This document shows positions 1,587 to 18,454 of a DNA stretch of 18,486 nucleotides, piece by piece. The first letter of the stretch is position 1. Every line of letters starts with the position of its first letter. The translations under genes and the position numbers were made by a program. The notes under the pieces are model-generated. The model was not told the origin of the DNA. It saw nothing but the letters and a program-made list of their open reading frames with translations, and made no database searches. The stretch is taken from UHGV virus genome UHGV-0140400. One strand, written 5' to 3'. Origin of the DNA: a virus.

Positions 1587-1589
1587 TTT

Positions 1590-1835
1590 ATGTTTGGTAC
1601 AATCGTTACAATAGGATTATGTTTATATGGTATAATTGCTTTAATACTTGTTTCAATCGTTAATTATAAAAGGAGTGATTACATGAATTTGATTAAAGCA
1701 TATTATAATATTGTTAACGCTCTCAATGATTACGATTTAACAAAAGAACAAAGAGATAAATTAGAAAATGCTTTATTTGAAATTACGCATATTCTTAATG
1801 ATTTAGAAAGTGAGGGAAAATATTTTGATAATTAA
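1590..1835 (+). CDS. Hypothetical small membrane protein (81 aa, N-terminal transmembrane helix)
   Basis: The N-terminus FGTIVTIGLCLYGIIALILVSIV is hydrophobic. A strong internal SD (AAGGAGTGA) plus ATG 1683 in the same frame could give a separate 51-aa soluble product. Confidence 0.45.
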   Translation: MFGTIVTIGLCLYGIIALILVSIVNYKRSDYMNLIKAYYNIVNALNDYDLTKEQRDKLENALFEITHILNDLESEGKYFDN

Positions 1836-1842
1836 ACATCAA

Positions 1843-3054
1843 ATGAAATTACATTTAAATGAATTGGTTGATTGGGCGTGGCGTAATGGTATAACATCTG
1901 AAAAGTTTCACTCAAATAATGGTTCATATGTAATATTTGACCATAGTGCAGTAGTAGAAACCTATATTATAAACAAAAATGATTTATTTAATGTTATAGA
2001 AGAAATTGAAATCACATTAAATACACCGATTGACTATTTCCTAGAGAAAGATATGTACGGAAATTATCGTGAACATCAAAATATTGCTATTAAGGATTTA
2101 TTATTTTTAAATACAACATCAGATATTTGGTTAATTAATGATGATGATTCACATATATTGATTTATAAAGACGGAAAACTCATTGATGAATATATGTATC
2201 ATCAATTTGAATATGAAGCTAATCAGAATAAACATATTTACCCAAATAATAAAGCAAGTGGAACGTACCCACATAAAACAGAACAAGACGTCACACCACC
2301 AAAAAAACAACCTGATACAAAACCCCTACCACCTGAAGATAATACACCAAAAGTGAGAACCATTAAAACATTAAATGGTACAGTGATGAAAGATTATACA
2401 CCCGTTTCATCAATACAATATGTTAAATCTGTTGGAATCATTGGTGACAGTGTGGGTAAAGGCGCGCATGCTTCATATAACTTTGGTGATTACATCAAAG
2501 AAAAAACAGGTGCAAAAATTCAAAACTTATCAGTAAGCAGTGCTACAATGAGTGAAGTTAAAGACAATAATATATTAAATCAAGCTAAACAACTCAAAGA
2601 TAATGAATTAGTGATTATACAGGGTACTGATGATGATTGGTTGTTTAATTCAAATGCAGGTGTTGAAGTAGGTAATAAACTTACTGATACAAAAACATAT
2701 ATCGGTGCATTTTATAAGGTTGTAGAAACGGTTAAAGAAAATAACCCAAAAGCTAAAATCGTTGTAATTACACCAACGAAACAAGCTAAAATTGATGATA
2801 CAGGAAAAGTTATAAGACGTGATACAGACAAGAATAAAAAAGGTTACACATTAAAAACTTATGTTGATTCACAAGTGAAAGCAACTAAAGATTTAGGATT
2901 AGCATTATATAATGCTTATGATGATTCATTAATTAATCCTTATGATGAAAAATTTAGACAATCGTCTATGAAAGACGGTTTACACCCAACAAAATGGGGT
3001 CATGAAATGATGTATTATCGCATTGTAGAAACATATCATAAAAATTTTGATTGA
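1843..3054 (+). CDS. SGNH/GDSL-family hydrolase (esterase/lipase-like) fused to an N-terminal domain of unknown function via a Pro/Lys-rich linker
   Basis: The C-terminal half has the GDS(x) block IIGDSVGKG, then QGTDDDW, then DGLHPT (DxxH catalytic pair), matching the SGNH hydrolase blocks. The linker is TPPKKQPDTKPLPPEDNTPK. The track starts at GTG 1810. ATG 1843 lies 8 nt after the stop of the upstream gene (translational coupling); TTG 1825 is also possible. TGA stop at 3052..3054. Confidence 0.65.
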   Translation: MKLHLNELVDWAWRNGITSEKFHSNNGSYVIFDHSAVVETYIINKNDLFNVIEEIEITLNTPIDYFLEKDMYGNYREHQNIAIKDLLFLNTTSDIWLINDDDSHILIYKDGKLIDEYMYHQFEYEANQNKHIYPNNKASGTYPHKTEQDVTPPKKQPDTKPLPPEDNTPKVRTIKTLNGTVMKDYTPVSSIQYVKSVGIIGDSVGKGAHASYNFGDYIKEKTGAKIQNLSVSSATMSEVKDNNILNQAKQLKDNELVIIQGTDDDWLFNSNAGVEVGNKLTDTKTYIGAFYKVVETVKENNPKAKIVVITPTKQAKIDDTGKVIRRDTDKNKKGYTLKTYVDSQVKATKDLGLALYNAYDDSLINPYDEKFRQSSMKDGLHPTKWGHEMMYYRIVETYHKNFD

Positions 3055-3064
3055 GGTGTAGACA

Positions 3065-3568
3065 ATGAAAAGAGGTAACAAAAGTAATCGCATTGCACGT
3101 TCAAATGCTTTTAGAGAATCAACATCAAAAAAACAATCAACCTATGAACGTGACGGATTTGTTTTTTTATTTGATGATGAAGAATTACAAAAAGAATATA
3201 TACATGAGTATAATTACTTTAATAATCTATTTGTAGAAAAAGGAAAAGTTAAATTACCTAAACCAAAAAAGATTGGTTACAATGATGCAAAAAGTTTAGT
3301 CAGTGGTAAGAATCAAGAAAAATTGACTAATATAGAAAATGTATATAAACAACTGGATTATGATTGGGAACAAAAAGGTAATATGCACAAACGTCACCTA
3401 TTCCAAGAATCAGTCAAAGAAAATGATGGTTCACAAGAAATATCACACTTTATTAAATCAACGGAAAAGCTATTTGAAGAACTTGCAGAAGCAACGAAAG
3501 TAGCAGATATTGTCAATAAAAAACAAGTTAAATATAACGTGGTTTATTACGTCAGACAGGTAGGTTAA
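3065..3568 (+). CDS. Hypothetical basic protein (167 aa); speculative terminal-protein or DNA-binding candidate
   Basis: A GAGGTG SD lies 6 nt before ATG 3065. The N-terminus is Lys/Arg-rich (MKRGNKSNRIARSNAFRESTSKKQ). The gene sits in the replication module upstream of the ATPase and polymerase. No motif evidence. Confidence 0.45.
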   Translation: MKRGNKSNRIARSNAFRESTSKKQSTYERDGFVFLFDDEELQKEYIHEYNYFNNLFVEKGKVKLPKPKKIGYNDAKSLVSGKNQEKLTNIENVYKQLDYDWEQKGNMHKRHLFQESVKENDGSQEISHFIKSTEKLFEELAEATKVADIVNKKQVKYNVVYYVRQVG

Positions 3569-3626
3569 AATATGTTTGAAAACATTCAAGATATTATTGA
3601 TTATTATTCAAGTAAGGAGGGAAAAA

Positions 3627-4886
3627 ATGAAAAAGTCACGACTGAATGAAGTTAAAGATTATCAAAACTTTGTAACTAAGTTTAGACGTTCTATTCCCAA
3701 ACAATATAACCAAATTGAACTTGCAGATGACTTAATGAATTTAGATATTGATTTTTTAATTTCCATATCCAACCGTTCAGACGGTAAAACATTCAACTAT
3801 GTTGCATTTTTTATGAAGTTAGCTATTGATTTAGATATTAAGTTTACTTTACTCGCAAGACATCATACATTGCGTGACGCTTATCGTGAATTACTTGAAA
3901 GAATATGTATTGAACAAAAACATTTTAATGATAAAGAGTTATTTTTTAGAAATACGCAAGATTATATTGCAGTGGGTTATGGTGATAAAGAAATAGGTAT
4001 TATTACACATCTTAATAATGCTACAGATTTAAAATATCATTCTAATTTTATGAAAAACTTTCCAATTATTATATATGATGAATTCCTAGCTTTAGAAAGT
4101 GACTATCTCATAGATGAGTGGGAAAAGTTGAAAACCATATATGAAAGTATTGACCGTAACCATGGTAATATTGAGTATATCAAAATACCAAAAATTGTAT
4201 TACTAGGAAATGCCGTAAACTTTTCAAGTCCCTTACTTGCTAACTTAAATATTTATGAACAGTTGCAACATCACTCAAAATTTGGTATGAATAGCAAACG
4301 TCAGTATAGTAATATCATGCTTGAGATGAGAAGAAATGAATTTTCTAATGAGAATCGTAACACACGTGCATTTAATACTGATGATGATTCTATGACAACA
4401 GGTGAATTTGATTTTAATACATTCAATTTAGCAGACGATTATTTGAGGGCGCACATATCAAGTAATGGAAACTTTTTCCATATCAAAACCCCCTATAACT
4501 ATATTAAAGTGATGTATAACTTAAATGATTATCAAACGAATATTAAAGTTGTACCCTATTCAGATGATTATCAATTTTGTACTGATGTATCAGATGTTGA
4601 ACATGGTGCATTATTTTTAAAAGAATCATTTTATAAAGATAATCATCAAAGGCGTTATTATAACCCCTCAAATCTTCATTTTGATAATGCTTACAGTAAA
4701 TCATTTATACTCAATGAGGACGATTTTATTCATTTAAACATGAACAAGATTATAAAGTATCATTTAAAAACAGAACGTAACAAAAAAGGGTATCAACCTT
4801 TTGAACAAAAAGAAAAAATGTATCATGATAACTACATTGAAAGAACTAAAAAAAATCTAGTAAAATCATTTATAAGCAATGTGTAA
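3627..4886 (+). CDS. DNA encapsidation (packaging) ATPase, phi29 gp16-like
   Basis: A strong AAGGAGGG SD precedes ATG 3627; the track's TTG 3576 start is unlikely. The Walker A is deviant (SNRSDGKT) and the Walker B is IIIYDEF. Size and position next to the DNA polymerase match 44AHJD/P68-type phages. Confidence 0.6.
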   Translation: MKKSRLNEVKDYQNFVTKFRRSIPKQYNQIELADDLMNLDIDFLISISNRSDGKTFNYVAFFMKLAIDLDIKFTLLARHHTLRDAYRELLERICIEQKHFNDKELFFRNTQDYIAVGYGDKEIGIITHLNNATDLKYHSNFMKNFPIIIYDEFLALESDYLIDEWEKLKTIYESIDRNHGNIEYIKIPKIVLLGNAVNFSSPLLANLNIYEQLQHHSKFGMNSKRQYSNIMLEMRRNEFSNENRNTRAFNTDDDSMTTGEFDFNTFNLADDYLRAHISSNGNFFHIKTPYNYIKVMYNLNDYQTNIKVVPYSDDYQFCTDVSDVEHGALFLKESFYKDNHQRRYYNPSNLHFDNAYSKSFILNEDDFIHLNMNKIIKYHLKTERNKKGYQPFEQKEKMYHDNYIERTKKNLVKSFISNV

Positions 4887-4890
4887 AGTT

Positions 4891-4919
4891 TTTACATATT
4901 GCTTTTTTTATGATATAAT
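4891..4919 (+). promoter_or_regulatory. Candidate promoter for the DNA polymerase gene (TTTACA - 17 nt - TGaTATAAT, extended -10)
   Basis: TTTACA at 4891..4896 and TATAAT at 4914..4919 with TG at 4911..4912. It lies between the ATPase stop and the polymerase SD. Confidence 0.45.
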
Positions 4920-4943
4920 GTTTTTTGATTAGAGGTGTAGAAC

Positions 4944-7235
4944 ATGGGATTATTAGAAGCAATGCAAAAACATAAAGGTCAAAAAAATTTATATCTTTAT
5001 TGGGATATTGAAACATTAAACTATAATAAGGTTGCAGGTAGAGAAAAACCAACAAAATATAAAAATGTCACTTATAGTCTTGCAATTGGTTGGTATGATG
5101 GACAACACATTGATGTTGAAGTTTTTCCAAGTTTTAAAGCCTTTTATCAATCTTTTTTTGATTACGCCTCAAGACGTGATACCATTACGAAATCACAAAC
5201 AACCATTAATATGATTGCACATAACTGTAATAAATATGATAATCATTTTTTACTTCATGATACAAAATATTATTTTGGTGATGATTTAGTGATAGAAAAT
5301 TTATTTATGAAAAGTGCAGAAGATAACGAAAATACGATTAATATCAATGAAGCAAAATTATTATCAAAAGAAACAAATGTGATTTTAGAAAAACGTGTTA
5401 AATCAAGTATCAATTTAGATTTAATGATGTATTTGAAAGGATTTAAGTTTAATATCATTGATAACTTTATGAAAACCAATACATCAATTGCTACACTAGG
5501 TAAAAAGCTCAAAGACAGCGGGTTTATTAGTGAAGATGAATTAAAAACTGATTTTCAATATGATGTGTTCGATGTAGAACATGATATGACAGATACACAA
5601 GCCTATGCTTATGCTTATGAATGTTTTCATCAACTTACAGAATCACAAATGACCTATATTAGAAACGATGTCATCATATTAGGTATGTGCCACATACATT
5701 ATAGTGATATATTCCCTAATTTTGATTATAGTGCGATGACCTTTAGTGTAAATATTATGAAAAGTTATATCAATAATGAAACAACACGCTTACAATTATT
5801 AAACCAAAAAGGAAAGCAAAAAATATCATACACAGATTTCACTTTTTTTGATATGAATTTTTATGACTTTATTAAGGGTTTCTATCGTGGTGGATTAAAT
5901 ATGTATAATTCACGTTATGTTGATAAAATAATCAATGAGGAATGTTTTTCAATAGACATTAATAGTAGTTATCCTTATGTAATGTATCATGAAAAATTAC
6001 CGATGTATATTTATGATTTTGGTGAATATGAACAACCTACAACGATACACATTGATTTAACTAATAGAGATTATTTTTCACTTTATAAAATGGATAAAGT
6101 CACATTCAATCGTACTATTTTAAGAAATATTGAAAGTGATTTAATTAAACAATGTCTTGTTAAATACTACAATAATGATAAAAAGTTTGTTAACATAAAT
6201 ACAAACACTTTACGCATGATTCAAGATTTAACGGGTTTAACTTTTGACAAAATAAATGTGTTTGCTTTTGTGTGCTATGAATGTGAATACTTTGGTGCTC
6301 GTGATATTATTCATCATAATTATTTTATTAAAACACAGGGTAAATTAAATAAAAAAATCATTATGGATTCACCCTATAACTATAAAATTACTGATGAAGT
6401 GAATACACATACCTATTCACAAGAAGAAATCATGTTGAGTAAAGTTGTTTTAAATGGTCTGTATGGTATACCTGCTTTACGGTCACATTTTAATTTGTTT
6501 AGACGTGATGAGGACGGTTTTTTAGTTAACCATGAAAATGGATATAAAAACAGTGAACGCAATTTGTTGTTTTCAACTTTTGTTACATCACAAGCCCTTT
6601 ATAATTTACTTGAACCATTACAAAATTTAACACAATCTGAAATTGATGAATGTTTTATATATTGTGATACGGATTCACTTTATTTAAAATCAAAGATTAA
6701 ACATAAAATCAATGATGAATTATTTGACCCAATCGCATTAGGTAAGTGGGACATTGAAAATCACGTTATTAAAAAAATGTATGTACTCAATCATAAAAAG
6801 TACGCCTACCAAAAAGAAGATAATACAATTAAAATAGCCAGTGCAGGTATTCCATTAGACGCATTTAATAAAAATCAATCTTTTGAAGAATTTATAAAGA
6901 ATGATTTTCACCATAAAGCAATTGTGTATAACAATAAATCCATTTATAACGAACAAAAGACAATATCTATTTATCCGTCAAAAACATATATTGAAAAAGG
7001 TACACCTTATGATTATTATTTCCCTAAAGAATTAGAGGATAGAAAAGAAGATGTATTAAAACAAGCAAGACGTGAATATGATGATGTTAATGACGATGAT
7101 ATATTATACATTGAGAGTGAAGTAGGCGCTTTTTCATTTAGTGACTTGTTTCCATATCAATTTGAAATTAAAAATAAATGTGATATTAACATTTTATATA
7201 TGGTTCATCAAGATATAAAAAATGACGCTACATGA
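4944..7235 (+). CDS. Family B, protein-primed DNA polymerase (763 aa)
   Basis: Exo I is YLYWDIETLN, Exo II is HNCNKYDNHF, motif A is DINSSYPYVMY, a motif B-like block is NGLYG, and motif C is YCDTDSLY. A GAGGTG SD precedes ATG 4944. It ends in a TGA-TAG-TAG triple stop inside the terminator hairpin. Confidence 0.9.
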   Translation: MGLLEAMQKHKGQKNLYLYWDIETLNYNKVAGREKPTKYKNVTYSLAIGWYDGQHIDVEVFPSFKAFYQSFFDYASRRDTITKSQTTINMIAHNCNKYDNHFLLHDTKYYFGDDLVIENLFMKSAEDNENTININEAKLLSKETNVILEKRVKSSINLDLMMYLKGFKFNIIDNFMKTNTSIATLGKKLKDSGFISEDELKTDFQYDVFDVEHDMTDTQAYAYAYECFHQLTESQMTYIRNDVIILGMCHIHYSDIFPNFDYSAMTFSVNIMKSYINNETTRLQLLNQKGKQKISYTDFTFFDMNFYDFIKGFYRGGLNMYNSRYVDKIINEECFSIDINSSYPYVMYHEKLPMYIYDFGEYEQPTTIHIDLTNRDYFSLYKMDKVTFNRTILRNIESDLIKQCLVKYYNNDKKFVNINTNTLRMIQDLTGLTFDKINVFAFVCYECEYFGARDIIHHNYFIKTQGKLNKKIIMDSPYNYKITDEVNTHTYSQEEIMLSKVVLNGLYGIPALRSHFNLFRRDEDGFLVNHENGYKNSERNLLFSTFVTSQALYNLLEPLQNLTQSEIDECFIYCDTDSLYLKSKIKHKINDELFDPIALGKWDIENHVIKKMYVLNHKKYAYQKEDNTIKIASAGIPLDAFNKNQSFEEFIKNDFHHKAIVYNNKSIYNEQKTISIYPSKTYIEKGTPYDYYFPKELEDRKEDVLKQARREYDDVNDDDILYIESEVGAFSFSDLFPYQFEIKNKCDINILYMVHQDIKNDAT

Positions 7236-7251
7236 TAGTAGCGTCTTTTTT
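7224..7251. terminator. Bidirectional rho-independent terminator at the convergence point of the + and - gene sets
   Basis: gacgctac-atgata-gtagcgtc forms an 8-bp GC-rich stem, flanked by AAAAAA upstream and TTTTTT downstream, so a U-run follows the hairpin on both strands. Confidence 0.7.
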
Positions 7252-7346
7252 ACGAGGTATAGTGACAAGTGACGTTTGCCATACGGATTATGTTTTGTTG
7301 TTTATTTACTAGAATGTTCTAGCATACTTATATTATAGCATAATTT

Positions 7347-8768
7347 TTACTTAATGCCACTAAAAAACATAATATTATCCCCTGCATTTTCAGGTACACC
7401 GTCAATCAATGTATATTCAACAACACGACTAGGTGCCCAATAAGGTGGCACGTTATAATTGGCTACTAAAAATGAACCGTCTTTGAATACTGCTACTACG
7501 ACACCCGTATGTCCGACACCGGGTAATGATGCTTGTAAATAAGGGGGTTTACTACTAAATCCATAGCCAACTGTTGGTCGATGTGTGACACGTGCGCCAC
7601 GATTACGATATACCACCCACACACGTTGACCGTTTGTGACTTGTCCGTCGTCGGCAGGTTGTACTTTACCATGTAATTGTGTCATATAACACTGTGTCAA
7701 TTCTGTACATTGACCTGTATTACCAAACCTCGGAAATGTATTACCACTGTTATTTAGATAACTAGGTTTAAATAGTGGCACGTCAATAGCGTCTTTATAT
7801 TTTTTTGGTAATTGAGAATAAGTCCAGTTACCACCAATCACACGTCCACTTTTACCATTAGGTGCAACTGATTTACCCCCTTTATCTGCGCCACCCTCAC
7901 TATCATCGGCACCTGTATCTTTTCCACCACCCCCGTCGATTCTTGATATTAAGTCTTTCATTTCATCAAGTAATTTTTGATTCATATTTAAACGATAGGT
8001 GTTATTGTATGTTTTTGTAATGGTAAACATCTGATTAGAAAAAAATTTATCAGTACCAATAGAGTGCAAATCCCACTGCATACTGTCTTGTAATTTTTTA
8101 AGAAATTCCTCAAAGGCACGTGCAACAACATCAAGCCCACCACTAGAGCCACTAGAACTACTTGAAGCACTACTTGAACCTCCTTTACCGTCTATTTTTC
8201 CACCCCAAGCTAAAATCGTGTTTGAAGCGTCTAAGAATGGATTTCCATATGTTTGCACTCGGTTATAACTTGCTTGTAATCCCTCAGGATAATAAGCAGC
8301 CCAAGTTGCTGCAGCTGTTAATGGAATATAGGCACGACCGACTTTACCATTTTTCATATTATGTGAAAAATCATAATTACCTTTTGCTTTTACACTTGCA
8401 GGCACAAAGTCTACGGGATTTCCTGCGTCAATCCACGAGGGTGTACCTGCTTGACGAGATTGAGACACAAGTTTACGTGCAACAAATTGTGCGTCTGATA
8501 AATAATTACCCTGTGGTGTTGTATGGTTAAGCCAACCCCAACTACCATTATAGCCCTCATTTTTTTCATAAGCACTAAATAATGCAGGTGATACCCCAAT
8601 GCTTTTAACTGCACTCAAGACCTGCCTAATTTTACCTGAATCATTACCACACCACGCTTGAAATCGTCCAATCCCTTTAACTTTAGGTACTAAATCATCA
8701 ACACTTAATCCAAAATCATCATTTAAATTAGAATGAATAAACTTATCAATTTTTTCTTTATCATTCAT
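7347..8768 (-). CDS. Virion-associated peptidoglycan hydrolase (tail lysin/tail spike): N-terminal lysozyme-like domain, two Gly/Ser-rich linkers, C-terminal CHAP peptidase domain
   Basis: The C-terminus carries the CHAP catalytic Cys (GQCTELTQCY) and His (GVGHTGVVVAV). The linkers are GGSSSASSSSSGSSGG and GGGGKDTGADDSEGGADKGGK. It is the last gene of the late operon and overlaps the holin stop in ATGAATGA. Confidence 0.7.
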   Translation of the reverse strand: MNDKEKIDKFIHSNLNDDFGLSVDDLVPKVKGIGRFQAWCGNDSGKIRQVLSAVKSIGVSPALFSAYEKNEGYNGSWGWLNHTTPQGNYLSDAQFVARKLVSQSRQAGTPSWIDAGNPVDFVPASVKAKGNYDFSHNMKNGKVGRAYIPLTAAATWAAYYPEGLQASYNRVQTYGNPFLDASNTILAWGGKIDGKGGSSSASSSSSGSSGGLDVVARAFEEFLKKLQDSMQWDLHSIGTDKFFSNQMFTITKTYNNTYRLNMNQKLLDEMKDLISRIDGGGGKDTGADDSEGGADKGGKSVAPNGKSGRVIGGNWTYSQLPKKYKDAIDVPLFKPSYLNNSGNTFPRFGNTGQCTELTQCYMTQLHGKVQPADDGQVTNGQRVWVVYRNRGARVTHRPTVGYGFSSKPPYLQASLPGVGHTGVVVAVFKDGSFLVANYNVPPYWAPSRVVEYTLIDGVPENAGDNIMFFSGIK

Positions 8769-9183
8769 CTTTATTCACTTCTTTCATTGGCTTGTTATCA
8801 CGACTTCTTATGACTTTTAATTTTTCCCCAATTTCTTCAGGAATCAGTACCCCCATTTCTGCACAGTTTTCAACAATAGATAATCCCTCATTCGCTATAT
8901 AGAAAAAGATTGTTACCATTAATAAACCATTGTTTAGATTTAATATTTGGTCGATGATATTTGCTAAAATGATAATACAGAAAATGAGTATTTTACGACC
9001 AAATCCATACATGCTTTTTCTACTCCATAAGTTTTTATTTTTAAAGGCTTTAGCTAAACCTGTAATAATATCAATTAACATTAAAACCATTAAAAAATAC
9101 AGTAATTTTATATCACCTGCATATATAAATGTGTGAAATGCGTCAGTTTGTGTATATTGTACGTGTAATTCACCTTTTTCCAT
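8761..9183 (-). CDS. Holin (phage_holin_4/LL-H-type, 140 aa, three predicted transmembrane segments)
   Basis: The hydrophobic segments are LLYFLMVLMLIDIITGLA, ILIFCIIILANIIDQIL and GLLMVTIFFYIANEGLSIVEN, with a charged C-terminal tail. Its position matches 44AHJD-like phages. Confidence 0.65.
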   Translation of the reverse strand: MEKGELHVQYTQTDAFHTFIYAGDIKLLYFLMVLMLIDIITGLAKAFKNKNLWSRKSMYGFGRKILIFCIIILANIIDQILNLNNGLLMVTIFFYIANEGLSIVENCAEMGVLIPEEIGEKLKVIRSRDNKPMKEVNKDE

Positions 9184-9192
9184 TTTTTAAAC

Positions 9193-10959
9193 CTACTTTC
9201 TAAATTTATTTTTAAATACATTTTGTGCCATTGGATTGTTTGTTCCGTCGTTATGCCAAAATCTGACACCCGTTTCAAGTAATACTTTCAATTGTTCTAA
9301 AAGCATAGGGTCGATACCGTCAATAGTATATGTACCTCTCATTCTTAAATAATTGCATACCGTCCATGAATCAATTGGGAATGGTGTTCCTGCTTGGTCG
9401 TTCGTTTCAAAACCTAACATGAAATAATAACGTTGAATATTATCCATGTCGAAGGGCGCGGGTACACCGATTTTCATGGTTAATCCATTAATACTATTTG
9501 CGATTTGGAACGCATTTCCCATTTGTGAACTTGTCACAGTAGGGGGTTGTAATGCTAAGTCTTTATATTCTGCACGTAATTCTTTATAGTAATTATACTC
9601 ATCATTAAATTTTGAAAATAAAGCCGTTGGTGAAAGATTAGAACCAATACTTACGGCGTCATAAAATCTTGATTTCAAATCATTACCATTGACAACATTA
9701 TTGATTCTGCTAGATATTAAATTACTTTGTGCATTTTTTTGTTTGTTGGCTTGTTGAGATTGTGCAAGTAATCCATTATCAATTAAAATAGGGACTTCGG
9801 CAAAACTATCAAACGTGATAGCCGTATTTAAAAATGAACCTGTATCAATCAAAATTGAATTATCACTTGCTTGTATTGGTTTTTCATTGGGTGCGCTATT
9901 ATAGTCAACGGGATAAATACGTACCTCATTATGATAACCAATAATAGATTTTGTTCTTAACTTAACCCCTGTTCTTTCTGTTATTTTTCCTGCGTCAAGT
10001 AATAAACTGTCACCATTCCATGAATATATTTCAATCGTTAAATATTCATTTCTCACTAAATGTTTTAATTCATCTTGATTACTATTTAACATATATTGCA
10101 ATCGTTCAAATGGTACACGTAATTCTTTTAATTCCCACTCATTAGATAATTTATCATTTTTAAGTGTCATTAATCCTTTTATATCTTCTTGTGTTTTGAC
10201 TGCTTCTAAATCATCTTTATTAATAAATGTTGCAGGTATTAATATGATTTTTTGAAAGTTTTGTGTAATCCATGGATATTTACTCATTTTATCCATAAAG
10301 TTATTAAAATCCTCACGATTCATGACATATAAATTAACTGGACTTGTAATGTAATCGTAAGTAATCCCTTTTGAAGATTCTAAGTTTGGTTCTTTTTTAG
10401 TACCAAATTTTTTAGATAAATCAGCACTTGATTGGAATAAAACAAGATTACCACCAAACTGTTCAAGATAATTATTCAGATAGTATTTGTTACTGGCTTT
10501 AATAACATCATCATTATTTCTCAGTGATGGTAACAAATAATTATAGACATCACGTGGTAAATGTTGACGTTCAACAAAAACATTTTGTACTTGAGATAAT
10601 ACATTACCCTGTGTGTAAGTCATGACTGTATCAATGACTAAATACATACGCGTAACATGATCATTGACATATTCAATTTGATTGACAAACGCGTAATAAC
10701 GTCTATTTTCAAAATCAGATTTAAATGTACAATAATTGATACCCTGTGCGTCTTGCCATGACATTTGCTCAAGATTTACCATGTTTCTATCACGTATAAA
10801 ATTAAACGGAATATTTTTATAATCAATTGCTTTAAAATGATTTTCATTTAAAAAATAGTTGTCACGTTCATTGTTTGATGAAAAGTGAATCGTGTTTTGA
10901 TAATCTGTCAGTGGTGTGTTATAGAAAAATTTAAAATGTGTCAGTTTTCTATCTGCCAT
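9193..10959 (-). CDS. Putative tail knob/distal tail tube protein (phi29 gp9-like, 588 aa)
   Basis: Called from size and its position between the holin and the lysin/fibre genes. A GGAGGA SD is present. No diagnostic motif, so the call rests on synteny. Confidence 0.4.
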   Translation of the reverse strand: MADRKLTHFKFFYNTPLTDYQNTIHFSSNNERDNYFLNENHFKAIDYKNIPFNFIRDRNMVNLEQMSWQDAQGINYCTFKSDFENRRYYAFVNQIEYVNDHVTRMYLVIDTVMTYTQGNVLSQVQNVFVERQHLPRDVYNYLLPSLRNNDDVIKASNKYYLNNYLEQFGGNLVLFQSSADLSKKFGTKKEPNLESSKGITYDYITSPVNLYVMNREDFNNFMDKMSKYPWITQNFQKIILIPATFINKDDLEAVKTQEDIKGLMTLKNDKLSNEWELKELRVPFERLQYMLNSNQDELKHLVRNEYLTIEIYSWNGDSLLLDAGKITERTGVKLRTKSIIGYHNEVRIYPVDYNSAPNEKPIQASDNSILIDTGSFLNTAITFDSFAEVPILIDNGLLAQSQQANKQKNAQSNLISSRINNVVNGNDLKSRFYDAVSIGSNLSPTALFSKFNDEYNYYKELRAEYKDLALQPPTVTSSQMGNAFQIANSINGLTMKIGVPAPFDMDNIQRYYFMLGFETNDQAGTPFPIDSWTVCNYLRMRGTYTIDGIDPMLLEQLKVLLETGVRFWHNDGTNNPMAQNVFKNKFRK

Positions 10960-10977
10960 AAAATATCCTCCTTATAT

Positions 10978-11008
10978 GTAAAAATAGACACGCTTTCACG
11001 TGTCTATT
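10978..11008 (-). terminator. Internal intrinsic terminator/attenuator in the late operon, between the 263-aa gene and the tail-knob gene
   Basis: aatagacacg-ctttca-cgtgtctatt is a 10-bp stem. On the - strand it is followed by TTTT. Confidence 0.5.
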
Positions 11009-11018
11009 ATATCATAAT

Positions 11019-11810
11019 TTAATCCATAAATACGGTATTAATTGGACACCACTCATCACCTGTTGGACTAGGGTAGGTTGTTCCCTCAATAACAACATCA
11101 CCTGCACGCATAATTGTAATTCTTGTGTAGTAAATTGAACCTGATTTTTTACTAGTATTTTGAACATAGTAATGTGGATTTGTGAACTCTCCATTGATTG
11201 GGATTTTTCCTACTGTAATAGAATCACCATTATACCCTTTCACTGCACCACGTAAAGCAACTGTTTTAATGCCTTTTACGTTAGTAATTCGATATTGTGG
11301 TGGGTCGGTATGTGGTATTAACCCACTACCTGTGATTGTGATATTTTGCCAACCTGTATCATCAATAGTAATACCATTGATTTTTTCCGTATTCGATTGA
11401 ATTTTTTGATTTGTTTCTTTTATCTTTTCGTTTAACGTTTTTTGTTCTTGTTTCAATTCGTCGATATTAATGGAATCAAGTTTTTGTTTCATTTCTTCTA
11501 AATGTGCATTGTCTAATTTTTCAGTGACTTCTTTTACTTTTAATTTGTTATCTTCGACCGATGTCTCAATGACTTTGATTTTTTCTTCATTATCATAGAT
11601 ACGTTTTTCATTGTCTGATAATTTTTCTTGAACTTCTTGAACCTCATCTTGTAGTGGTTCGATACTTTCTAAATGAAGAAAACCATTTTTTGTGTAAATG
11701 TAAATATCACCATCAATCGTTGATAATATATCATTTTCATCAACAAGATTTGTATTAAAATTTTCTAAGTGGTAAATATCTTTTACACTTCTTACAAATT
11801 TACTAGCCAT
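11019..11810 (-). CDS. Structural protein with a central coiled-coil and a C-terminal beta-rich domain (putative fibre/receptor-binding accessory protein)
   Basis: Residues about 50..140 are heptad-like and Glu/Lys-rich. The GGAGG SD overlaps the endolysin stop (TAAATG junction). Confidence 0.4.
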   Translation of the reverse strand: MASKFVRSVKDIYHLENFNTNLVDENDILSTIDGDIYIYTKNGFLHLESIEPLQDEVQEVQEKLSDNEKRIYDNEEKIKVIETSVEDNKLKVKEVTEKLDNAHLEEMKQKLDSINIDELKQEQKTLNEKIKETNQKIQSNTEKINGITIDDTGWQNITITGSGLIPHTDPPQYRITNVKGIKTVALRGAVKGYNGDSITVGKIPINGEFTNPHYYVQNTSKKSGSIYYTRITIMRAGDVVIEGTTYPSPTGDEWCPINTVFMD

Positions 11811-12716
11811 TTAGTCAACCTCCAATTTTCCCCAAAGATTTTTTTCATTTTTAATTTTTTCTTGTTTATCTTCAATATGACCGATTGGCATATAAAATCT
11901 TTCTTTACTAGCACCTTTTTGTTGGTAATAAAAACCTAACCACCAATAACCATCTTTTTTAATAATTCTATCAAATTTAACATATTGATTAGGATATATC
12001 CAAGAATTTTTATCAACCATTGTACCTTTTAAACCTGGTTGTTTTCTTACAACAATCGGTTCTTTATTGGTTTTATGTGTTGTAAATTTTCCAGTCCAAT
12101 TGAAAATTGTTTTAGGTTGTTTTTTTAATGACTTAGATTTTCCTTTCATATATCCCACAACTAAATTGTCAATCACTTTCATATCACGTCGACCATAACC
12201 ACATGCTGCTAAGATGTTTCCTGGGTCTTGTTTATCAGCTTGAATATCTTGATGCCCCGGCATTTCATTTTTAGGATTAATAGTCCATGATTCACAAAAT
12301 ACTGCTGCTATACGACACGCATTATCTAATGACTTCATTGAACGTTCTTTATTTTTAAAGTAACATGCTTCAATACCAAAAGCACCATCATTTGCATCAA
12401 CACCATACCAAGCATTATCAGTTGGCGTATCATACAATACATGCCATGCTTTCTCTGTAACTGGAATACATATAATAGCTTCTTTATCATCAACAAATAC
12501 GTGTGCGCTTGCAACCATTGCCCAATCAATATTATACGTATTTCTATAGTAATTCACATTATCTTGTGCTGTGGTATCTGGATTGCCTGTGTCATGAAAG
12601 ACTGCAAAACGTGGTTTTCCTGTTGTAAGTTTTTGACCTGTGCGTCTTGTTCCAAATGGTAAAAAGTCAGTATAAACGGGAACACCGTTCCATGTACCTA
12701 TTTTTTTCTTACTCAT
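11811..12716 (-). CDS. Endolysin: N-acetylmuramoyl-L-alanine amidase (Amidase_2/PGRP) with a C-terminal SH3b (SH3_5) cell-wall-binding domain
   Basis: The Zn-ligand context is AVFHDTGN, and PGHQDIQADKQDPG is the PGRP-type H...DP motif. The C-terminal SH3_5 signature is YWWLGFYYQQKGASKERFYMPIG. A GGAGG SD lies 7 nt from the ATG. Confidence 0.75.
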   Translation of the reverse strand: MSKKKIGTWNGVPVYTDFLPFGTRRTGQKLTTGKPRFAVFHDTGNPDTTAQDNVNYYRNTYNIDWAMVASAHVFVDDKEAIICIPVTEKAWHVLYDTPTDNAWYGVDANDGAFGIEACYFKNKERSMKSLDNACRIAAVFCESWTINPKNEMPGHQDIQADKQDPGNILAACGYGRRDMKVIDNLVVGYMKGKSKSLKKQPKTIFNWTGKFTTHKTNKEPIVVRKQPGLKGTMVDKNSWIYPNQYVKFDRIIKKDGYWWLGFYYQQKGASKERFYMPIGHIEDKQEKIKNEKNLWGKLEVD

Positions 12717-12737
12717 TAAATCGCCTCCATTTTATTT

Positions 12738-12763
12738 AAAAAGGGTAGAATAATCTACCCTTT
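12738..12763. terminator. Intrinsic terminator (hairpin usable on both strands) overlapping the stop of the appendage/fibre gene, upstream of the endolysin
   Basis: aaagggtaga-ataa-tctacccttt is a 10-bp stem. The - strand transcript continues with a U-run (TTTTT). Confidence 0.5.
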
Positions 12764-13831
12764 TATAATGAACCCTTTACTATCCATTGTATTAGGTTCT
12801 ATGTTTGTTGAATATCCATGGTCTTTATCTGTAAATATCCTACTACCATTATACACGTTATATACTGTTTTGTTACTAGATATGTTAGAACCAAAACAAG
12901 TAATTTCACCACCACGTGTTGCATAAACGGGTTCATTTTTAGTACCTGAAATATTTGACGCTTCGGCGAACACTTTAGACGCATAAGCTAAAATACCAAA
13001 GTCACCACTACCTGTGATTGTAATTCTATCTGCAAATATTTGTCCACCACGTGTCGCTTCAATACCATTACGTCCTGCATGTTCAATGACGGCTTCGTTA
13101 ATAGAAATCATTGAACCATACGCTAATACGTTATCATCTTTTGAACGTGACACTTTCGCACCATATGCTGCAACATAACCACCACGTGTTGATTCTAATC
13201 CACGACGACCGTTACCGTCACAATTAATTTCTTGACAATACACATCACCTGCGTAGGCAAGTACACCATTACGTTTATTACCATTGGTTGTTGATAATCT
13301 CGCTTGTACCGTTGAACCATGTGTACATTGAATACCATCAAGTCCATTCTCATTAGCATTACCACTTGTGAAATCAAGTTTTGAGTTGTTACTTGCGATG
13401 ACACCATGCCATTTATTACGTGAAGCCGTTGCACCTGTTGCGTCAATAGAACAACCCCTGTTTGCCATAATACCACTTGCACCACAACCATTAGCAATCC
13501 CTTTATCAAAGTTAATATTTGATGAACGTGTTGCAATAACACCGTACGTTGTTTGTGAATTTGAGCAATCAGAATATCTTAAATCAATATCACTTGAAGC
13601 ATAACTAACAACATTATCATCAATTGTATCAGTGATTTTACAGTTTCTTGCACTCGCTTGTGAACCTGTAGTCACCATTAAACCATGGTGTCCGTTAAAT
13701 CTTGCTTCGGTAAAATCAATATAACCACTTGCACCATGTGAGAAGTGTATTCCAATTTCACCACAACGATTGACTGTCATATAGTTACCTGTTAATGATG
13801 AATTAAATATTCTTAATCCGTCACCATACAT
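12755..13831 (-). CDS. C-terminal part (358 codons) of the pre-neck appendage/tail fibre: right-handed parallel beta-helix (pectate-lyase-like) domain
   Basis: Repetitive Gly/Asn/Ser/Thr-rich turns (ATRGG..., NG.G..A.G periodicity) are typical of beta-helix depolymerases and phi29 gp12. There is no SD in front of its first ATG. It is in the same frame as the upstream 209-codon ORF, separated from it by one TGA and 41 sense codons. Confidence 0.6.
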   Translation of the reverse strand: MYGDGLRIFNSSLTGNYMTVNRCGEIGIHFSHGASGYIDFTEARFNGHHGLMVTTGSQASARNCKITDTIDDNVVSYASSDIDLRYSDCSNSQTTYGVIATRSSNINFDKGIANGCGASGIMANRGCSIDATGATASRNKWHGVIASNNSKLDFTSGNANENGLDGIQCTHGSTVQARLSTTNGNKRNGVLAYAGDVYCQEINCDGNGRRGLESTRGGYVAAYGAKVSRSKDDNVLAYGSMISINEAVIEHAGRNGIEATRGGQIFADRITITGSGDFGILAYASKVFAEASNISGTKNEPVYATRGGEITCFGSNISSNKTVYNVYNGSRIFTDKDHGYSTNIEPNTMDSKGFIIKG

Positions 13832-13954
13832 ATTTTGTTGATTATTATATTCTTCTAATTGTTCTCTATTTCCATTATAGGAAAAATCACAATAGTTAGC
13901 TTGAATATGTGAACCATTGACACCACATAAACCAATAAAATTAAAGTGTGTAGA

Positions 13955-14584
13955 TCAACCACGTTCAGTCATTTCAAACGTTGTATTATCCATCAAGAAA
14001 CCACAGTTAATACTATCTGAAAAATCTTTGTTTTGAAGTTTAAAATCAATTTTAGGGAATGTTGAATTTATTCCATAAAATAATGGTTTTACTCTAAAAA
14101 TTGGATTTGTTTTTATTTCAACTTGACGATTTAATTCAGTTTCATAGGCTTCTACAATATCATTTTCTGATGTAATCGTAATATGATTATAACGTTTATC
14201 ACGTAAGAATAATTGTTCTCGCATCATGTAATCTTTAAGTAATATCACACGTATAGATTTTGGTTGAACAATTAAATTTTCAATGTAATCAAAACAATGA
14301 TTCAATGTGTCAAAATCACCTTTTTGTCCTACTGTATAAGTGACATCTGTATTTGATAACGTTAAAGCGTCGTTTGTTTCTTTCATTTTTTGTATATCAT
14401 CTGCTAAACCATTGACAAAATCACATAATTCAAAAATAAAACCATTAAATCGCGCTAAATAATCATAATATGATTTTGAATTGGTATTATAATCTGCATT
14501 ATCACTGTAAAATTGTTCACGATATATGCCACGACGATACCCGTATTCATTATTATAATTGATTCGACCGTTATTTATATACAT
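13955..14584 (-). CDS. N-terminal part (209 codons) of the same appendage/tail-fibre gene, ending at an in-frame TGA
   Basis: A GGAGGA SD lies 7 nt from ATG 14584. The ORF ends ...EMTERG-TGA at 13955..13957. The frame continues open (STHFNFIGLCGVNGSHIQANYCDFSYNGNREQLEEYNNQQN) into the beta-helix ORF. Confidence 0.55.
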   Translation of the reverse strand: MYINNGRINYNNEYGYRRGIYREQFYSDNADYNTNSKSYYDYLARFNGFIFELCDFVNGLADDIQKMKETNDALTLSNTDVTYTVGQKGDFDTLNHCFDYIENLIVQPKSIRVILLKDYMMREQLFLRDKRYNHITITSENDIVEAYETELNRQVEIKTNPIFRVKPLFYGINSTFPKIDFKLQNKDFSDSINCGFLMDNTTFEMTERG

Positions 14585-14596
14585 ATTTTTATCCTC

Positions 14597-15448
14597 CTAC
14601 CATATGTGTAAAAAACATTCTTTATCATATGTTTTAAATATTGTATCACGCATTGAATATAACTTTTGTAAGTTATCTATTAAGTATTGTTTTGTTAATC
14701 CTGTTCGATTCATTTCATTTTGTGACTCAGTATTACGTTTCGTATCACTTTCACCATTTCTTAATGAATCAAACGTATTATCTTTTGCACCTGTTTTTTC
14801 TGATACTGTTTCACTGGTATTTTTATCACGTGAAATCGTATTTGTGTCTGCATAATCAAGTACCGTATTATCAACATCAATATTGACTTTTGACTGTGGT
14901 AGGGTAGATTCTGCAGTACGATTATCATCAAAGCTTTTTGTGATTGTATCTTCATAGTCTTTATATTCTTCATGACCTTTGTCTTGTTGTCTGTCTTTCG
15001 TTTGACCCTGTTCGATTGCATTTTCTAATGCTTTACCAATATCAGTAGACTGTGTGTCTGTTACTTGTTCAATGTATTTATAAATATCTGAACCATAGAC
15101 ACGATATATATAATCTTCATGTGTCATGGTGATATATAAAACTTGACTTGCAAACGATTCTACCGTTTGTCTGCCAATTTCTCTATATAAAAAACGCAAT
15201 GTAAAACTTTCTTTAAAATATCGGTCAATGCGTTCATCATTAAACATGAAACCTTTAAAAAACATATGATCAACAATTTGTTTAACATCATCATCAAAAT
15301 ACAACATCTTTTGCATAAATGCATGTTTTGAATCATTAAAGTGGATTCTATCATTATTAACAAATTCATTTAATCCCAAACGTTGTAATTCACTTTCAAT
15401 GATTTCATATAATGTTGTTGTGTGTTTACTCAACTTTTCCACCACCAA
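14597..15448 (-). CDS. Putative lower collar protein (phi29 gp11-like, about 280 aa)
   Basis: Called from size and its position between the portal and appendage genes. The start is uncertain: TTG 15448 has no SD, and TTG 15431 (SD-like GGTGG) is an alternative. The central region is acidic. Confidence 0.4.
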   Translation of the reverse strand: MVVEKLSKHTTTLYEIIESELQRLGLNEFVNNDRIHFNDSKHAFMQKMLYFDDDVKQIVDHMFFKGFMFNDERIDRYFKESFTLRFLYREIGRQTVESFASQVLYITMTHEDYIYRVYGSDIYKYIEQVTDTQSTDIGKALENAIEQGQTKDRQQDKGHEEYKDYEDTITKSFDDNRTAESTLPQSKVNIDVDNTVLDYADTNTISRDKNTSETVSEKTGAKDNTFDSLRNGESDTKRNTESQNEMNRTGLTKQYLIDNLQKLYSMRDTIFKTYDKECFLHIW

Positions 15449-16433
15449 AATTATCAGTCTTTAGATTCATAATATCCATTTCAGATATAGCTTCATCATC
15501 ATAATAAGGGTGAATATCTAAATTAAAACGACGATTTAACATTTCAAAAGGATTACGACCCCTTAAATAGATATTACTATTTGATGTAGTAAATGAACGA
15601 TTTGATTTAGCTTCGGTATCACTGACACCACTTTCTTTATCAACTGCAAGTGAGTTGACACCTAAAAAGTTTGATAATTCACTCACTTTATTTTGATATT
15701 CTCGTTTCATTTCAACTAAAGCAGTAGTTACAAAATCACTACCCAAGTCAATGATATCTTCTTCAGGGTCAATGTATTTATCTGTCTTAATAAAAGGTGC
15801 ACCATTATTCAATTTATTAATAAACTGATTAATCGTTTCATCTTGAATATCAGATAAAAATATTTTACTAAATTTAGACTGCATAATAAGTGAAAAGCGA
15901 GATAATATAATTTCTGCTAATTCATCACAATAATGTTCGATAATCTGATAATCATTATTTAAATTGACGGGTTTATTTCTTAATACAATAAAGTCACCAC
16001 TTTGGCATTTATCATAATATTCAATTTCTAAAGCATAATCAGGTCTTAAATAATCAGGAATAATAAATGTGATGTCATCTTGAGTTAATCTCTTATTAAA
16101 AGTTAAATTGAAGTTATTTATAAAATCGTTACTATTTTTATAATACATTGATTGGATATAACCTAATATCATAATGACACCATTTCTTGCTTTACCAACT
16201 ACAACTTGATAACCCTGTCTTAAAGCAATTTCAAGTTGTAAGAAATCAATGCCAACTGAATTTTGATTTGTATAATTGATAAGTAAGGGTAAAAATTCCA
16301 CGTAACGATTAAAAATTAACCGACGAAAACGGTTCCTATGTTCCATTATTCGTCGGTCAATATCTTCAGTCAATTCAACTTTTAAACCAACATCTTTATT
16401 TTTTCCGATGTAATCGTTATCTAAATAACTCAT
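15426..16433 (-). CDS. Putative portal/upper collar (connector) protein (phi29 gp10-like, 335 aa)
   Basis: An AAGGAGGA SD is present. It lies directly downstream of the major capsid gene and is connector-sized. The call rests on synteny. Confidence 0.5.
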   Translation of the reverse strand: MSYLDNDYIGKNKDVGLKVELTEDIDRRIMEHRNRFRRLIFNRYVEFLPLLINYTNQNSVGIDFLQLEIALRQGYQVVVGKARNGVIMILGYIQSMYYKNSNDFINNFNLTFNKRLTQDDITFIIPDYLRPDYALEIEYYDKCQSGDFIVLRNKPVNLNNDYQIIEHYCDELAEIILSRFSLIMQSKFSKIFLSDIQDETINQFINKLNNGAPFIKTDKYIDPEEDIIDLGSDFVTTALVEMKREYQNKVSELSNFLGVNSLAVDKESGVSDTEAKSNRSFTTSNSNIYLRGRNPFEMLNRRFNLDIHPYYDDEAISEMDIMNLKTDNFGGGKVE

Positions 16434-16453
16434 GGTTTAAAAGTCCTCCTTTA

Positions 16454-17671
16454 TTATTCTGTTGCACCTGCGTCAGGTTGTTCCTTTGGTGCTTCTGTAA
16501 TTAAGATTTTATTAAAGAATGGTGACATAGCTTTGAATGAGTAATAATGAATCCAGTGTGTTACTTCATCAAATTCACCATTGTAAAATGGTTCTTTTAA
16601 CATGCCTTTTGTATTACGTTTATATTTAAGTGCATTAATATCAAAAATAAATGCAAACAATTCACCTTGTGGCTTGATTTCTTCAATGTTTCCTTTAAAT
16701 TCTTTTAAATCAGATACATTAAATGTAAATACTGAACCAGTAGGGATAACATCACCAATCATCGCTTGATAATCACCAAAAGCACGTAAGTAATTGATTG
16801 TATCTTCATTTGATAAAGTGACATCTTTTGTTGTTTTATATACACCACCTAAATCATCAAAACTGATGATATGGTCTGTAAAGTCAATGCCTGCCATTTG
16901 GAAAGTATTCGCAATTTTTGTATCAAGTAAATATGACTTGAGTGAATCAGTTGTTAAAATTGCAATATCACTTAATTTTGAAACAGTTGTATATTGTCCT
17001 ACTGAACCACCTGACGCTTTGTGTACTTCATTGTATTTTGCACTGTTATTTTGCATATTTAAAATTGCTTCAAATACACGTTCTGTTAAATCTTCTTTTG
17101 ATGAAGCAGTACGACGGTTTGAATCTTGCAATTGATTAATTGCATAATCAACCATCATTGCACGTATTTCTTTTTCTTCTTGAACGTTAATATCTGAAAT
17201 CTTTTTACGTAATACACCTAAAGCGTAATTTGTAGCGTCACCTAATGTTTGGAAATTAAAACGTACATCATTATTATTTAATGTGAATTTTTGTTTTTTA
17301 ACAATTCCTGAACCATATAAACGTGTTGCCATTTGTGGATAATTACGTTTTAACATTAATTCTTCTGATTTAGATAAATTCATTTCAATTGGAATTGTAT
17401 CCATAATAACGTATTCTTCAGAATATTGTCCGATAAAGTCTTGTTCTTTTGCTAACCAGTTGAAACGATTTCCTAAAGCAATGTCAATCAATAATGTTTC
17501 ATTGATTTTAGGGAATAGGTATTTATTTACATATGTTTCAAACATTGTATTTACGTTTGACCAATTCTCACCAAAAGTCCATTTTTTACCATAATCATGG
17601 TTAAAATCTTGTAATGACGCTTTAGTAGAATCTGCAATTAAAGTAGGTATATCTGTCTTTTTATCTGCCAT
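16454..17671 (-). CDS. Major capsid (head) protein (405 aa)
   Basis: A strong AGGAGG SD is present. It is the largest ORF after scaffold and small-ORF genes at the start of the late operon. Its size matches the major head proteins of P68-like and phi29-like phages. Confidence 0.6.
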   Translation of the reverse strand: MADKKTDIPTLIADSTKASLQDFNHDYGKKWTFGENWSNVNTMFETYVNKYLFPKINETLLIDIALGNRFNWLAKEQDFIGQYSEEYVIMDTIPIEMNLSKSEELMLKRNYPQMATRLYGSGIVKKQKFTLNNNDVRFNFQTLGDATNYALGVLRKKISDINVQEEKEIRAMMVDYAINQLQDSNRRTASSKEDLTERVFEAILNMQNNSAKYNEVHKASGGSVGQYTTVSKLSDIAILTTDSLKSYLLDTKIANTFQMAGIDFTDHIISFDDLGGVYKTTKDVTLSNEDTINYLRAFGDYQAMIGDVIPTGSVFTFNVSDLKEFKGNIEEIKPQGELFAFIFDINALKYKRNTKGMLKEPFYNGEFDEVTHWIHYYSFKAMSPFFNKILITEAPKEQPDAGATE

Positions 17672-17683
17672 TGTTTAATCCTC

Positions 17684-17875
17684 CTATACTTCTTGTGTTG
17701 AATCATCACTATAAGTTTGTTTTGTCAATGAATGAACTTGTCTACCGTATTCATCTTCTGATTTTGATGTTGCAATACTCATATTTGCATTTAATTCTCT
17801 TGATTTATTCAAACGTGAATCTTCATAATTGGCATGTGTCATACCACGCATTTCATTTCCGTCAAAGTTTGCCAT
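17684..17875 (-). CDS. Small hypothetical late protein (63 aa) between the scaffold and capsid genes
   Basis: An AAGGAGTGA SD and ATG (MANFDG...) are present. The track's GTG 17884 start is less likely. The protein is hydrophilic and Ser/Asp/Glu-rich. Confidence 0.45.
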   Translation of the reverse strand: MANFDGNEMRGMTHANYEDSRLNKSRELNANMSIATSKSEDEYGRQVHSLTKQTYSDDSTQEV

Positions 17876-17887
17876 TTTTATCACTCC

Positions 17888-18211
17888 TTATAAATTTAAC
17901 ATTTGTTTGATTTCTTCACTTGATTCAATACCATCTGTTTCTTGGTCGTCATCAACTTCAGTAGGTGATGTTTTATCTTCAAAATTTGGGTCACTAGATT
18001 CACCCGTTGGTTGTGGTTGTGCTTCTTGATTATTTAATCTTTGTTCTAAAGCAGTGACACGTTGTTCTAATTGTACAAATGCTTCTGATTTTTCTTCAGT
18101 CACTTCTTTTTCAGGTTCAGTGACAACATCTTCTGCACTTTCTATTTTTTCTGGTTGTTCTGTTTCTTCATTTGTTGGTTCTTCTTTAATTATTTTTTCT
18201 TCTTCTGCCAT
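17888..18211 (-). CDS. Putative scaffolding protein (phi29 gp7-like, 107 aa, highly acidic coiled-coil)
   Basis: The sequence is Glu-rich (MAEEEKIIKEEPTNEETEQPEK...LEQRVTALEQRL). It is the first gene of the leftward late operon. An AGAGGTG SD is present. Confidence 0.55.
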   Translation of the reverse strand: MAEEEKIIKEEPTNEETEQPEKIESAEDVVTEPEKEVTEEKSEAFVQLEQRVTALEQRLNNQEAQPQPTGESSDPNFEDKTSPTEVDDDQETDGIESSEEIKQMLNL

Positions 18212-18259
18212 TTTATTTTACACCTCTTTATTTTTAAAAAATGTAAGCAAATTTTTGCT

Positions 18260-18296
18260 TGACTATATTATAACATAAAAATTGTGAGTTGTTTAA
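18260..18296 (-). promoter_or_regulatory. Right-end promoter for the late (structural) operon on the - strand (TTAAAC - 18 nt - TGtTATAAT, extended -10)
   Basis: On the - strand the sequence reads ttaaacaactcacaatttttatgTTATAAT. It sits just outside the right ITR, about 50 nt upstream of the scaffold ATG. Confidence 0.45.
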
Positions 18297-18303
18297 ATAT
18301 GTT

Positions 18304-18454
18304 AAAAACTTTTTATCAATAATCCATTACATATTTTTAAATGTATTTTTTAATTGACCTTTCACTCAAAATTTTTGTCGCTACGTGCTCAAATTCTGTT
18401 CTCGTTTCTGGGTGGGGGTGGGGTGAAGTACCAAAAAAAATTTCCTTAATATTT
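18304..18454. repeat. Right inverted terminal repeat (151 bp)
   Basis: It is the exact reverse complement of 33..183 and includes gggtgggggtggggtg at 18411..18426. Confidence 0.9.

Follow-up and report, generated by a model that had tools for sequence, protein, structure and literature searches.

Is the in-frame TGA that divides the receptor-binding protein (RBP) gene of this phage a boundary between two genes, a signal read by the translation machinery, or a defect, and if a defect, of the phage or of its record? The window, by which we mean the whole stretch of DNA analysed, is a complete Andhravirus genome of 18,486 bases (Rountreeviridae, Rakietenvirinae; a Staphylococcus epidermidis picovirus) with a G+C content of 30%. 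Pike, BESEP3, S-CoN_Ph33, St 134 and Andhra are 93-95% identical to it over ~95% of its length, and the phage collection holds no record identical to the window. Our analysis shows that the locus is the single, known Andhravirus receptor-binding tail appendage gene, present as a disrupted allele as written. The stop itself is best read, on comparison with related sequences, as an unselected single-base lesion, private to this genome and very recent, and not as a decoding signal.

Translation of the minus strand gave 209 sense codons, the TGA, 41 sense codons (STHFNF...NNQQN), an ATG at 13831..13829 and then sense codons as far as the TAG. The frame therefore contains exactly one internal stop and lacks the uninterrupted form typical of the gp15 family, and the first-pass annotation was right to describe one 609-codon frame broken by a single TGA with only sense codons in the intervening stretch. 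The list of open reading frames splits the gene into 13955..14584 (209 aa) and 12755..13831 (358 aa). That the downstream part has no ribosome-binding site before its ATG had also been claimed, and we found no Shine-Dalgarno-like motif upstream of 13831 or of any other in-frame ATG, GTG or TTG in codons 211-320. The shared frame is not a matter of chance, since relatives have an uninterrupted 609-codon gene at the same position. Pike, Andhra and St 134 each have one 1830-nt CDS of 609 codons between the tail stem gene and the endolysin, annotated in St 134 as 'receptor binding protein; appendages', and the order stem (lower collar), RBP, endolysin on the late strand is the same in the window, Pike, Andhra, St 134 and L004, a metagenome contig that is the nearest intact relative. 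The RBP genes of L004 and the window differ at 2 of 1830 nt, positions 14374 and 13957. With the intact L004 protein as query, PDB 8EGR chain A (Andhra gp15) was matched over residues 1-609 at 1340 bits; the distal 399 codons of the window gene match PF13229 (Beta_helix, Pfam, E 1e-13), and Andhra gp15 and the window gene have the same 609-codon length with ~96% amino-acid and 93% nucleotide identity.

Andhra gp15 has been solved by cryo-EM (Hawkins et al., Sci Adv 2022; PMC9710869) and surrounds the tail as 12 trimers (36 copies) that determine host range. In each chain the N-terminal 36-38 residues form a loop by which the protein binds portal and stem; a coiled coil of 34-38 residues follows, and then a beta-helix of 534 residues whose relatives are polysaccharide lyases and the appendage protein gp12 of phi29 (PMC9710869). 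The window gene resembles it in position, in its 609 codons, in colinearity over residues 1-609 and in the succession of loop, coiled coil and 534-residue trimeric beta-helix, and differs in having TGA for Gly210 and Asn for Tyr71, both of which are invariant in the relatives examined. Taking the extent of the beta-helix from the published structure (residues ~76-609; PMC9710869), codon 210 lies ~135 residues inside it, because loop and coiled coil end near residue 75. The TGA does not mark a junction between an attachment domain and the beta-helix; the break falls within the beta-helix, which begins near residue 76.

The likenesses that had been proposed to phi29 gp12 and to P68-type fibres fared differently, the former standing for the beta-helix and the latter failing outside residues 23-73. 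As in phi29, twelve beta-helix appendages surround the tail of a small protein-primed podovirus, and structural resemblance of the gp15 beta-helix to phi29 gp12 (PDB 3GQ9) has been reported (PMC9710869); at E<=1e-3 there was no sequence match to 3GQ9 among PDB sequences, and the window protein does not show the autoproteolytic chaperone domain of gp12. The P68 gp17 tail fibre (PDB 6IAB/6IAC) is a functionally equivalent appendage with a portal-binding and coiled-coil N-terminus, and window residues 23-73 match P68 fibre residues 29-79 (E 1e-5). Beyond this the two are not homologous, P68 gp17 having a beta-propeller platform and tower where gp15 has a beta-helix, with ~23% overall identity (PMC9710869). 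The window gene belongs to a known, structurally solved family, and a nonsense lesion in such a family is ordinary and no new biological feature.

Table. Coordinates of the RBP gene, its parts and the private sites of the window
Feature	Position	Strand	Basis or remark
RBP (tail appendage) gene, Andhra gp15 orthologue	12755..14584	-	translation, synteny, PDB 8EGR match, PF13229; 609 codons + TAG
Start ATG	14584..14582	-	AGGAGG upstream
Ribosome-binding site AGGAGG of RBP gene	14593..14598	-	8 nt before ATG
In-frame TGA, codon 210	13955..13957	-	from GGA (Gly); G>T on coding strand = C>A at 13957 on + strand
Proximal 209 codons	13958..14584	-	portal/stem-binding loop, coiled coil, ~first 135 beta-helix residues; 24.8 kDa if terminated
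Distal 399 sense codons + TAG, rest of beta-helix	12755..13954	-	identical to nearest intact relative
Terminal TAG of RBP gene	12755..12757	-	translation
Hairpin AAAAGGGTAG-ATTATT-CTACCCTTTT	12739..12764	-	contains true TAG; terminator-like gene end
Codon 71 TAC (Tyr) > AAC (Asn), second private change in RBP gene	14374	-	end of coiled coil
Further private sites of the window, besides 13957	1891, 5570, 5930, 6022, 7023, 11202, 14374, 14788, 14933, 15809		

To establish the ancestral state of codon 210, we compared 35 other copies of the gene, taken from cultured phages and from IMG/VR contigs, JGI/ENA metagenomes and Logan assemblies. All 35 encode glycine there (GGT in 23, GGA in 7, GGG in 5), and among them codons 209-211 (Gly-Gly-Ser) vary at third positions only, a pattern in the alignment that indicates purifying selection on the residues. 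Two independent metagenome contigs, L004 (ENA ERZ1756112, 18,150 bp) and L005 (Logan SRR1039533), are identical to each other, carry GGA and differ from the window at just 7 of 11,864 positions (99.94% identity over 11.9 kb) and 5 of 4,516 positions, respectively. Since every relative has GGN and the nearest have GGA, the TGA is a private G>T change, and the ancestral codon is one of the four one-step ancestors that the first-pass annotation had listed for such an alignment. Downstream of the TGA there are no differences from the nearest intact relative; with no decay 3' of the stop, the lesion must be either very young or not real. Tyr71 is likewise invariant, as TAC or TAT, in 33 relatives and is Asn in the window, and in ten further near-complete contigs every called RBP product is 609 aa long. 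The TGA allele did not turn up in IMG/VR or GTDB genomes scanned for exact 33-mers and 24-mers, and neither the 209-aa nor the 358-aa product has an exact match in a 153-billion-gene index. A homologue search with the N-terminal fragment gave four short partial matches and did not return 609-aa proteins known to be in the collection.

The stop is one of a larger set of changes peculiar to this genome. The window has the derived state at all seven positions where it differs from L004/L005, and private changes are absent from L004. Counting only sites without variation in at least 10 relatives, 8 changes are private to the window, 7 of them amino-acid-changing (one the stop) and 1 silent. This 7:1 ratio, as against 150:230 in the relatives (Fisher p=0.0086), and the corresponding 5:2 ratio among the differences from L004, as against 1603:4801 between lineages (p=0.013), have no power to separate error from fresh mutation, a high nonsynonymous share being expected for very recent real mutations also. 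Invariant residues are altered in five essential genes: Tyr>Asn in the portal, Thr>Ala in the stem, Tyr>Asn in the RBP, Val>Ile in gp6 and two in the polymerase, Asp360Gly just after motif A and Thr694Pro. Private changes that are radical and fall on invariant residues have the look of random, unfiltered change. Stops are created by 5.0% of all possible single-base substitutions in the RBP gene, and with about ten unselected private substitutions the chance of one or more nonsense codons would be roughly 40%; at these rates, one nonsense codon is unremarkable. The private changes bear no technical signature in their transitions and transversions (4:4 against 209:181), oxidative damage of the C>A/G>T kind would account for only 2 of the 11 derived changes, and the phasing-error signature, a match to the neighbouring base in 5 of 7 changes, is not distinguishable from chance. 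Of the other window proteins, portal and polymerase, both with private changes, have no entry in the 153-billion-gene index; capsid and terminal proteins, which are unchanged, occur in 3 and at least 23 contigs, respectively.

The first-pass annotation had offered sequencing error, nonsense mutation and readthrough as explanations of the TGA. Readthrough as an evolved feature does not survive the comparison, the stop being present in 0 of 35 relatives; error and nonsense mutation are both kept, and error is favoured. That the TGA is a technical error and not a real mutation is the most likely single explanation, although we would give it no better than an even chance. A wrong consensus base, such as low coverage or an amplification error would produce, may have entered an uncurated Illumina assembly, and the actual phage would then make an intact 67.5-kDa protein. 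The record was evidently not curated, since untrimmed Illumina TruSeq adapter remains at both ends, 32 nt each at window positions 1-32 and 18455-18486 (GACTGGAGTTCAGACGTGTGCTCTTCCGATCT), so that the true genome termini are 33 and 18454. The untrimmed adapters, together with private changes that look unselected, lean towards an uncurated-assembly error. It also counts for error that the TGA allele and the other variant proteins are seen nowhere else while unchanged proteins are found elsewhere. Against this reading, both termini were assembled cleanly into adapter, contrary to very poor coverage, and Illumina assemblies of good coverage seldom have substitution errors in their consensus.

Technically broken RBP reading frames are known in the clade and count for error as well. 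S-CoN_Ph33 and S-CoN_Ph35 (OR354856, OR354858), plaque-forming phages of this genus, have their RBP gene annotated in several ORFs, and these breaks are technical. Both genomes were sequenced by ONT R9.4.1 only (PMC11001980). Their breaks differ from the present one in being indels (1 and 14 gaps), whereas the window has one substitution in an indel-free Illumina assembly.

A real TGA is a possible alternative, somewhat less likely than error. It would be a very recent nonsense mutation in a defective or complementation-dependent genome, sampled from a mixed population or after a bottleneck. The lesion is a clean substitution in an indel-free, full-length gene, Illumina chemistry rarely miscalls a consensus base, and the absence of downstream decay fits an age of a few generations. 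Premature stops also occur in other metagenome-derived relatives, in the head fibre gene of contig L032 and the endolysin gene of contig L013, and, more speculatively, the two private polymerase changes at invariant residues make a raised mutation rate conceivable. What weighs against a real mutation is that a lethal allele would not be expected to become the consensus of a phage population that is propagating. The appendage affected here is a host-range determinant present in 36 copies per virion (PMC9710869). In phi29, particles without the analogous gp12 are non-infectious. The absence of the TGA allele from IMG/VR, GTDB and the 153-billion-gene index also speaks against it.

If the TGA is nevertheless real, the 24.8-kDa stub would keep the portal- and stem-binding loop and the trimerising coiled coil and would lack ~75% of the beta-helix. 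Nonsense mutants of phi29 gene 12 (sus12) form appendage-less, non-adsorbing particles; by this likeness an appendage-less phenotype is to be expected, although the sus12 mutations are laboratory amber alleles grown on suppressor hosts. Virions made from this genome alone would be without functional appendages and would not adsorb, and neither host-range studies nor therapy could sensibly use the stock. A real TGA would also amount to a modest natural experiment on the number of appendages required by a picovirus.

It is improbable, in our estimate, that the TGA is real and the phage viable through unprogrammed, low-rate readthrough, with near-cognate tRNA-Trp inserting Trp at the UGA; equally improbable is the outcome that this predicts, small amounts of full-length Trp210 protein greatly outnumbered by stubs. 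UGA is leakier than the other stops, being read through at 1e-2 to 1e-3 in enterobacteria, and Bacillus subtilis reads it as Trp at a few percent. In S. aureus RF2 accounts for only ~9% of release factors (PMC4989110), and UGA termination may be weak in staphylococci if RF2 is scarce. We regard it as very unlikely that RF2-poor staphylococci read opal at the percent level, that virions mix a few Trp210 appendages with stubs and that the phage propagates in this way. Were opal so tolerated, a lytic phage would be living with a nonsense codon in its receptor-binding protein, and far fewer than 12 appendage trimers would suffice. Several observations oppose leaky readthrough. The base after the TGA (+4) is U, which in E. 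coli makes a strong termination context, and the window offers no downstream structure, suppressor tRNA or Rfam element that would help. At residue 210, where a Gly-Gly-Ser turn has an invariant Gly, the protein would probably tolerate Trp poorly. The protein is trimeric, and stubs that keep the coiled coil and portal loop should poison trimers and fill the 12 sites, to judge from the gp15 structure (PMC9710869).

TGA also functions as an ordinary terminator in this genome and in most relatives. It ends the gp6/SGNH, polymerase and holin genes, each followed by a further in-frame stop within 0-7 codons, as had been claimed of its use here as a terminal codon with a backup stop, and these three TGA terminators are common to 17 of 18, 17 of 25 and 22 of 25 relatives. 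The backup stops carry little weight, because the genome is only 30% G+C. Across 20 genes there is a single internal TGA and three genes terminate in TGA, so that the genome does not show the pattern of TGA reassignment (code 4).

An evolved stop, whether programmed readthrough of the Q-beta A1 type, a reassigned or selenocysteine TGA or a functional division of the appendage into two genes, is scarcely credible, since codon 210 is a stop in none of the 35 relatives, genomes 99.9% identical included, and TGA otherwise serves as a terminator. Such a stop would be consistent with a TGA that lies in frame before a distal part still intact and protein-coding, and with the stand-alone 142-156-aa proteins that carry the same N-terminal anchor module in uncultured picovirus-like contigs. 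These natural short anchor proteins, however, differ in their C-terminal half, and what follows them is no beta-helix but a separately started M23 peptidase gene, whereas here a second gene would have no start backed by a ribosome-binding site and the break lies inside the beta-helix fold and not between modules. A tRNA scan found no tRNA gene in the genome, suppressors included, the 116 nt around and after the TGA fold no better than shuffled sequences (z=0.13), and near 13955 there is no Rfam or SECIS-like match. Selenocysteine insertion was rejected as a candidate: no hairpin or SECIS match lies 3' of the UGA, and homologues have Gly, and not Cys, Sec or Trp, at this position. Programmed readthrough was rejected on the lack of conservation of the stop, the lack of a stimulatory structure and the U at +4. 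Q-beta A1 offers a likeness in its in-frame UGA inside a phage structural gene, whose long product would carry Trp; there the stop is conserved and both products are required, whereas the window stop is private and splits a single fold.

In annotation, one disrupted receptor-binding protein gene, an Andhra gp15 orthologue, should take the place of the two ORFs, which are not to be counted as two proteins, and the adapter should be cut from both ends of the record. The finding is a useful annotation flag and has no bearing on a wider open question. Promoter-like matches within the RBP gene number 10, below the shuffle mean of 13.2. The only Rfam matches are sub-threshold, and all of them fall on the hairpin at the end of the gene, which folds with its flanks at -15 kcal/mol.

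The window carries an untrimmed Illumina TruSeq adapter, GACTGGAGTTCAGACGTGTGCTCTTCCGATCT, at both of its ends, and the phage terminus (AAATATTAAGG...) directly adjoins it. The true genome is therefore 33..18454 (18,422 bp), and removal of the adapter reveals a perfect inverted terminal repeat, corresponding in place to the repeat regions of 155 bp annotated in Andhra. The Andhra GenBank record itself (KY442063) bears the same adapter and index at both ends, and adapter cores are also present in the contigs of two other relatives (L015 and L037). The record of phage JBug18 (GenBank MH972263) has ∼90 nt of nearly pure poly-T at each end (1-93 and the last ∼90 nt), and its real terminus, AAATATTAAG, begins after the poly-T stretch; this is a further case of an Andhravirus genome published with an artefact of assembly.

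Besides the in-frame TGA in the gene for the receptor-binding tail-appendage protein (RBP), six amino-acid changes are private to the window (positions 1891, 6022, 7023, 14374, 14788 and 15809), at residues that are invariant in 10-33 relatives. Either they are errors of one kind with the TGA, or they represent a mutation load. Two of them fall in the polymerase, which makes a mutator allele conceivable; Asp360>Gly lies ∼11 residues past a motif-A-like DINSSYP. Stops within the reading frame of a structural or lysis gene were also found in a few other metagenome-derived relatives. Among 435 gene-level tblastn alignments a stop occurred in four, two of which come from the indel-ridden record of the plaque-forming phage S-CoN_Ph35.

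Features of the window and of related contigs
Feature	Location	Details
Adapter	1-32; 18455-18486	
Inverted terminal repeat	33-183; 18304-18454	151 bp
Hairpin	12739-12764 (- strand)	10-bp stem AAAAGGGTAG / CTACCCTTTT, loop ATTATT
Private change, RBP	14374	Tyr71>Asn
Private change, portal		Tyr209>Asn
Private change, stem		Thr>Ala
Private change, gp6		Val>Ile
Private change, polymerase		Asp360>Gly
Private change, polymerase		Thr694>Pro
In-frame stop, head-fibre	L032 (OCLO01000250.1)	
In-frame stop, endolysin	L013	codon 298
In-frame stop, capsid	L031	
Stand-alone anchor and downstream peptidase genes	L049 144-1775 (ENA ERZ27288456 k119_267962); also L050	proteins P0001-P0004

In uncultured picovirus-like contigs there is a gene for a separate, stand-alone protein of 142-156 aa, the first ∼75 residues of which are homologous (∼64% identity) to the portal-binding loop and coiled coil of the RBP. 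At 12 nt past this gene lies that of a 394-aa protein with an M23 (lysostaphin/LytM-like) peptidase domain at its end, and none of the cultured phages in the collection match these contigs outside the ∼140-nt anchor module. On this basis the N-terminal anchor looks like a mobile module able to present different tail enzymes. In the gene that follows the RBP, near relatives (L037-L046 and L004, the nearest intact one) differ in their endolysin module: in some it has 299-305 aa with Amidase_2 and SH3b domains, the type found in the window (301 aa), and in others 250 aa with CHAP and SH3b domains. Such differences at one position indicate that modules have been exchanged within the genus Andhravirus. 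The true RBP stop codon, TAG, is contained in a terminator-like hairpin, which a simple scan did not pick up; the endolysin gene starts 22 nt beyond it.
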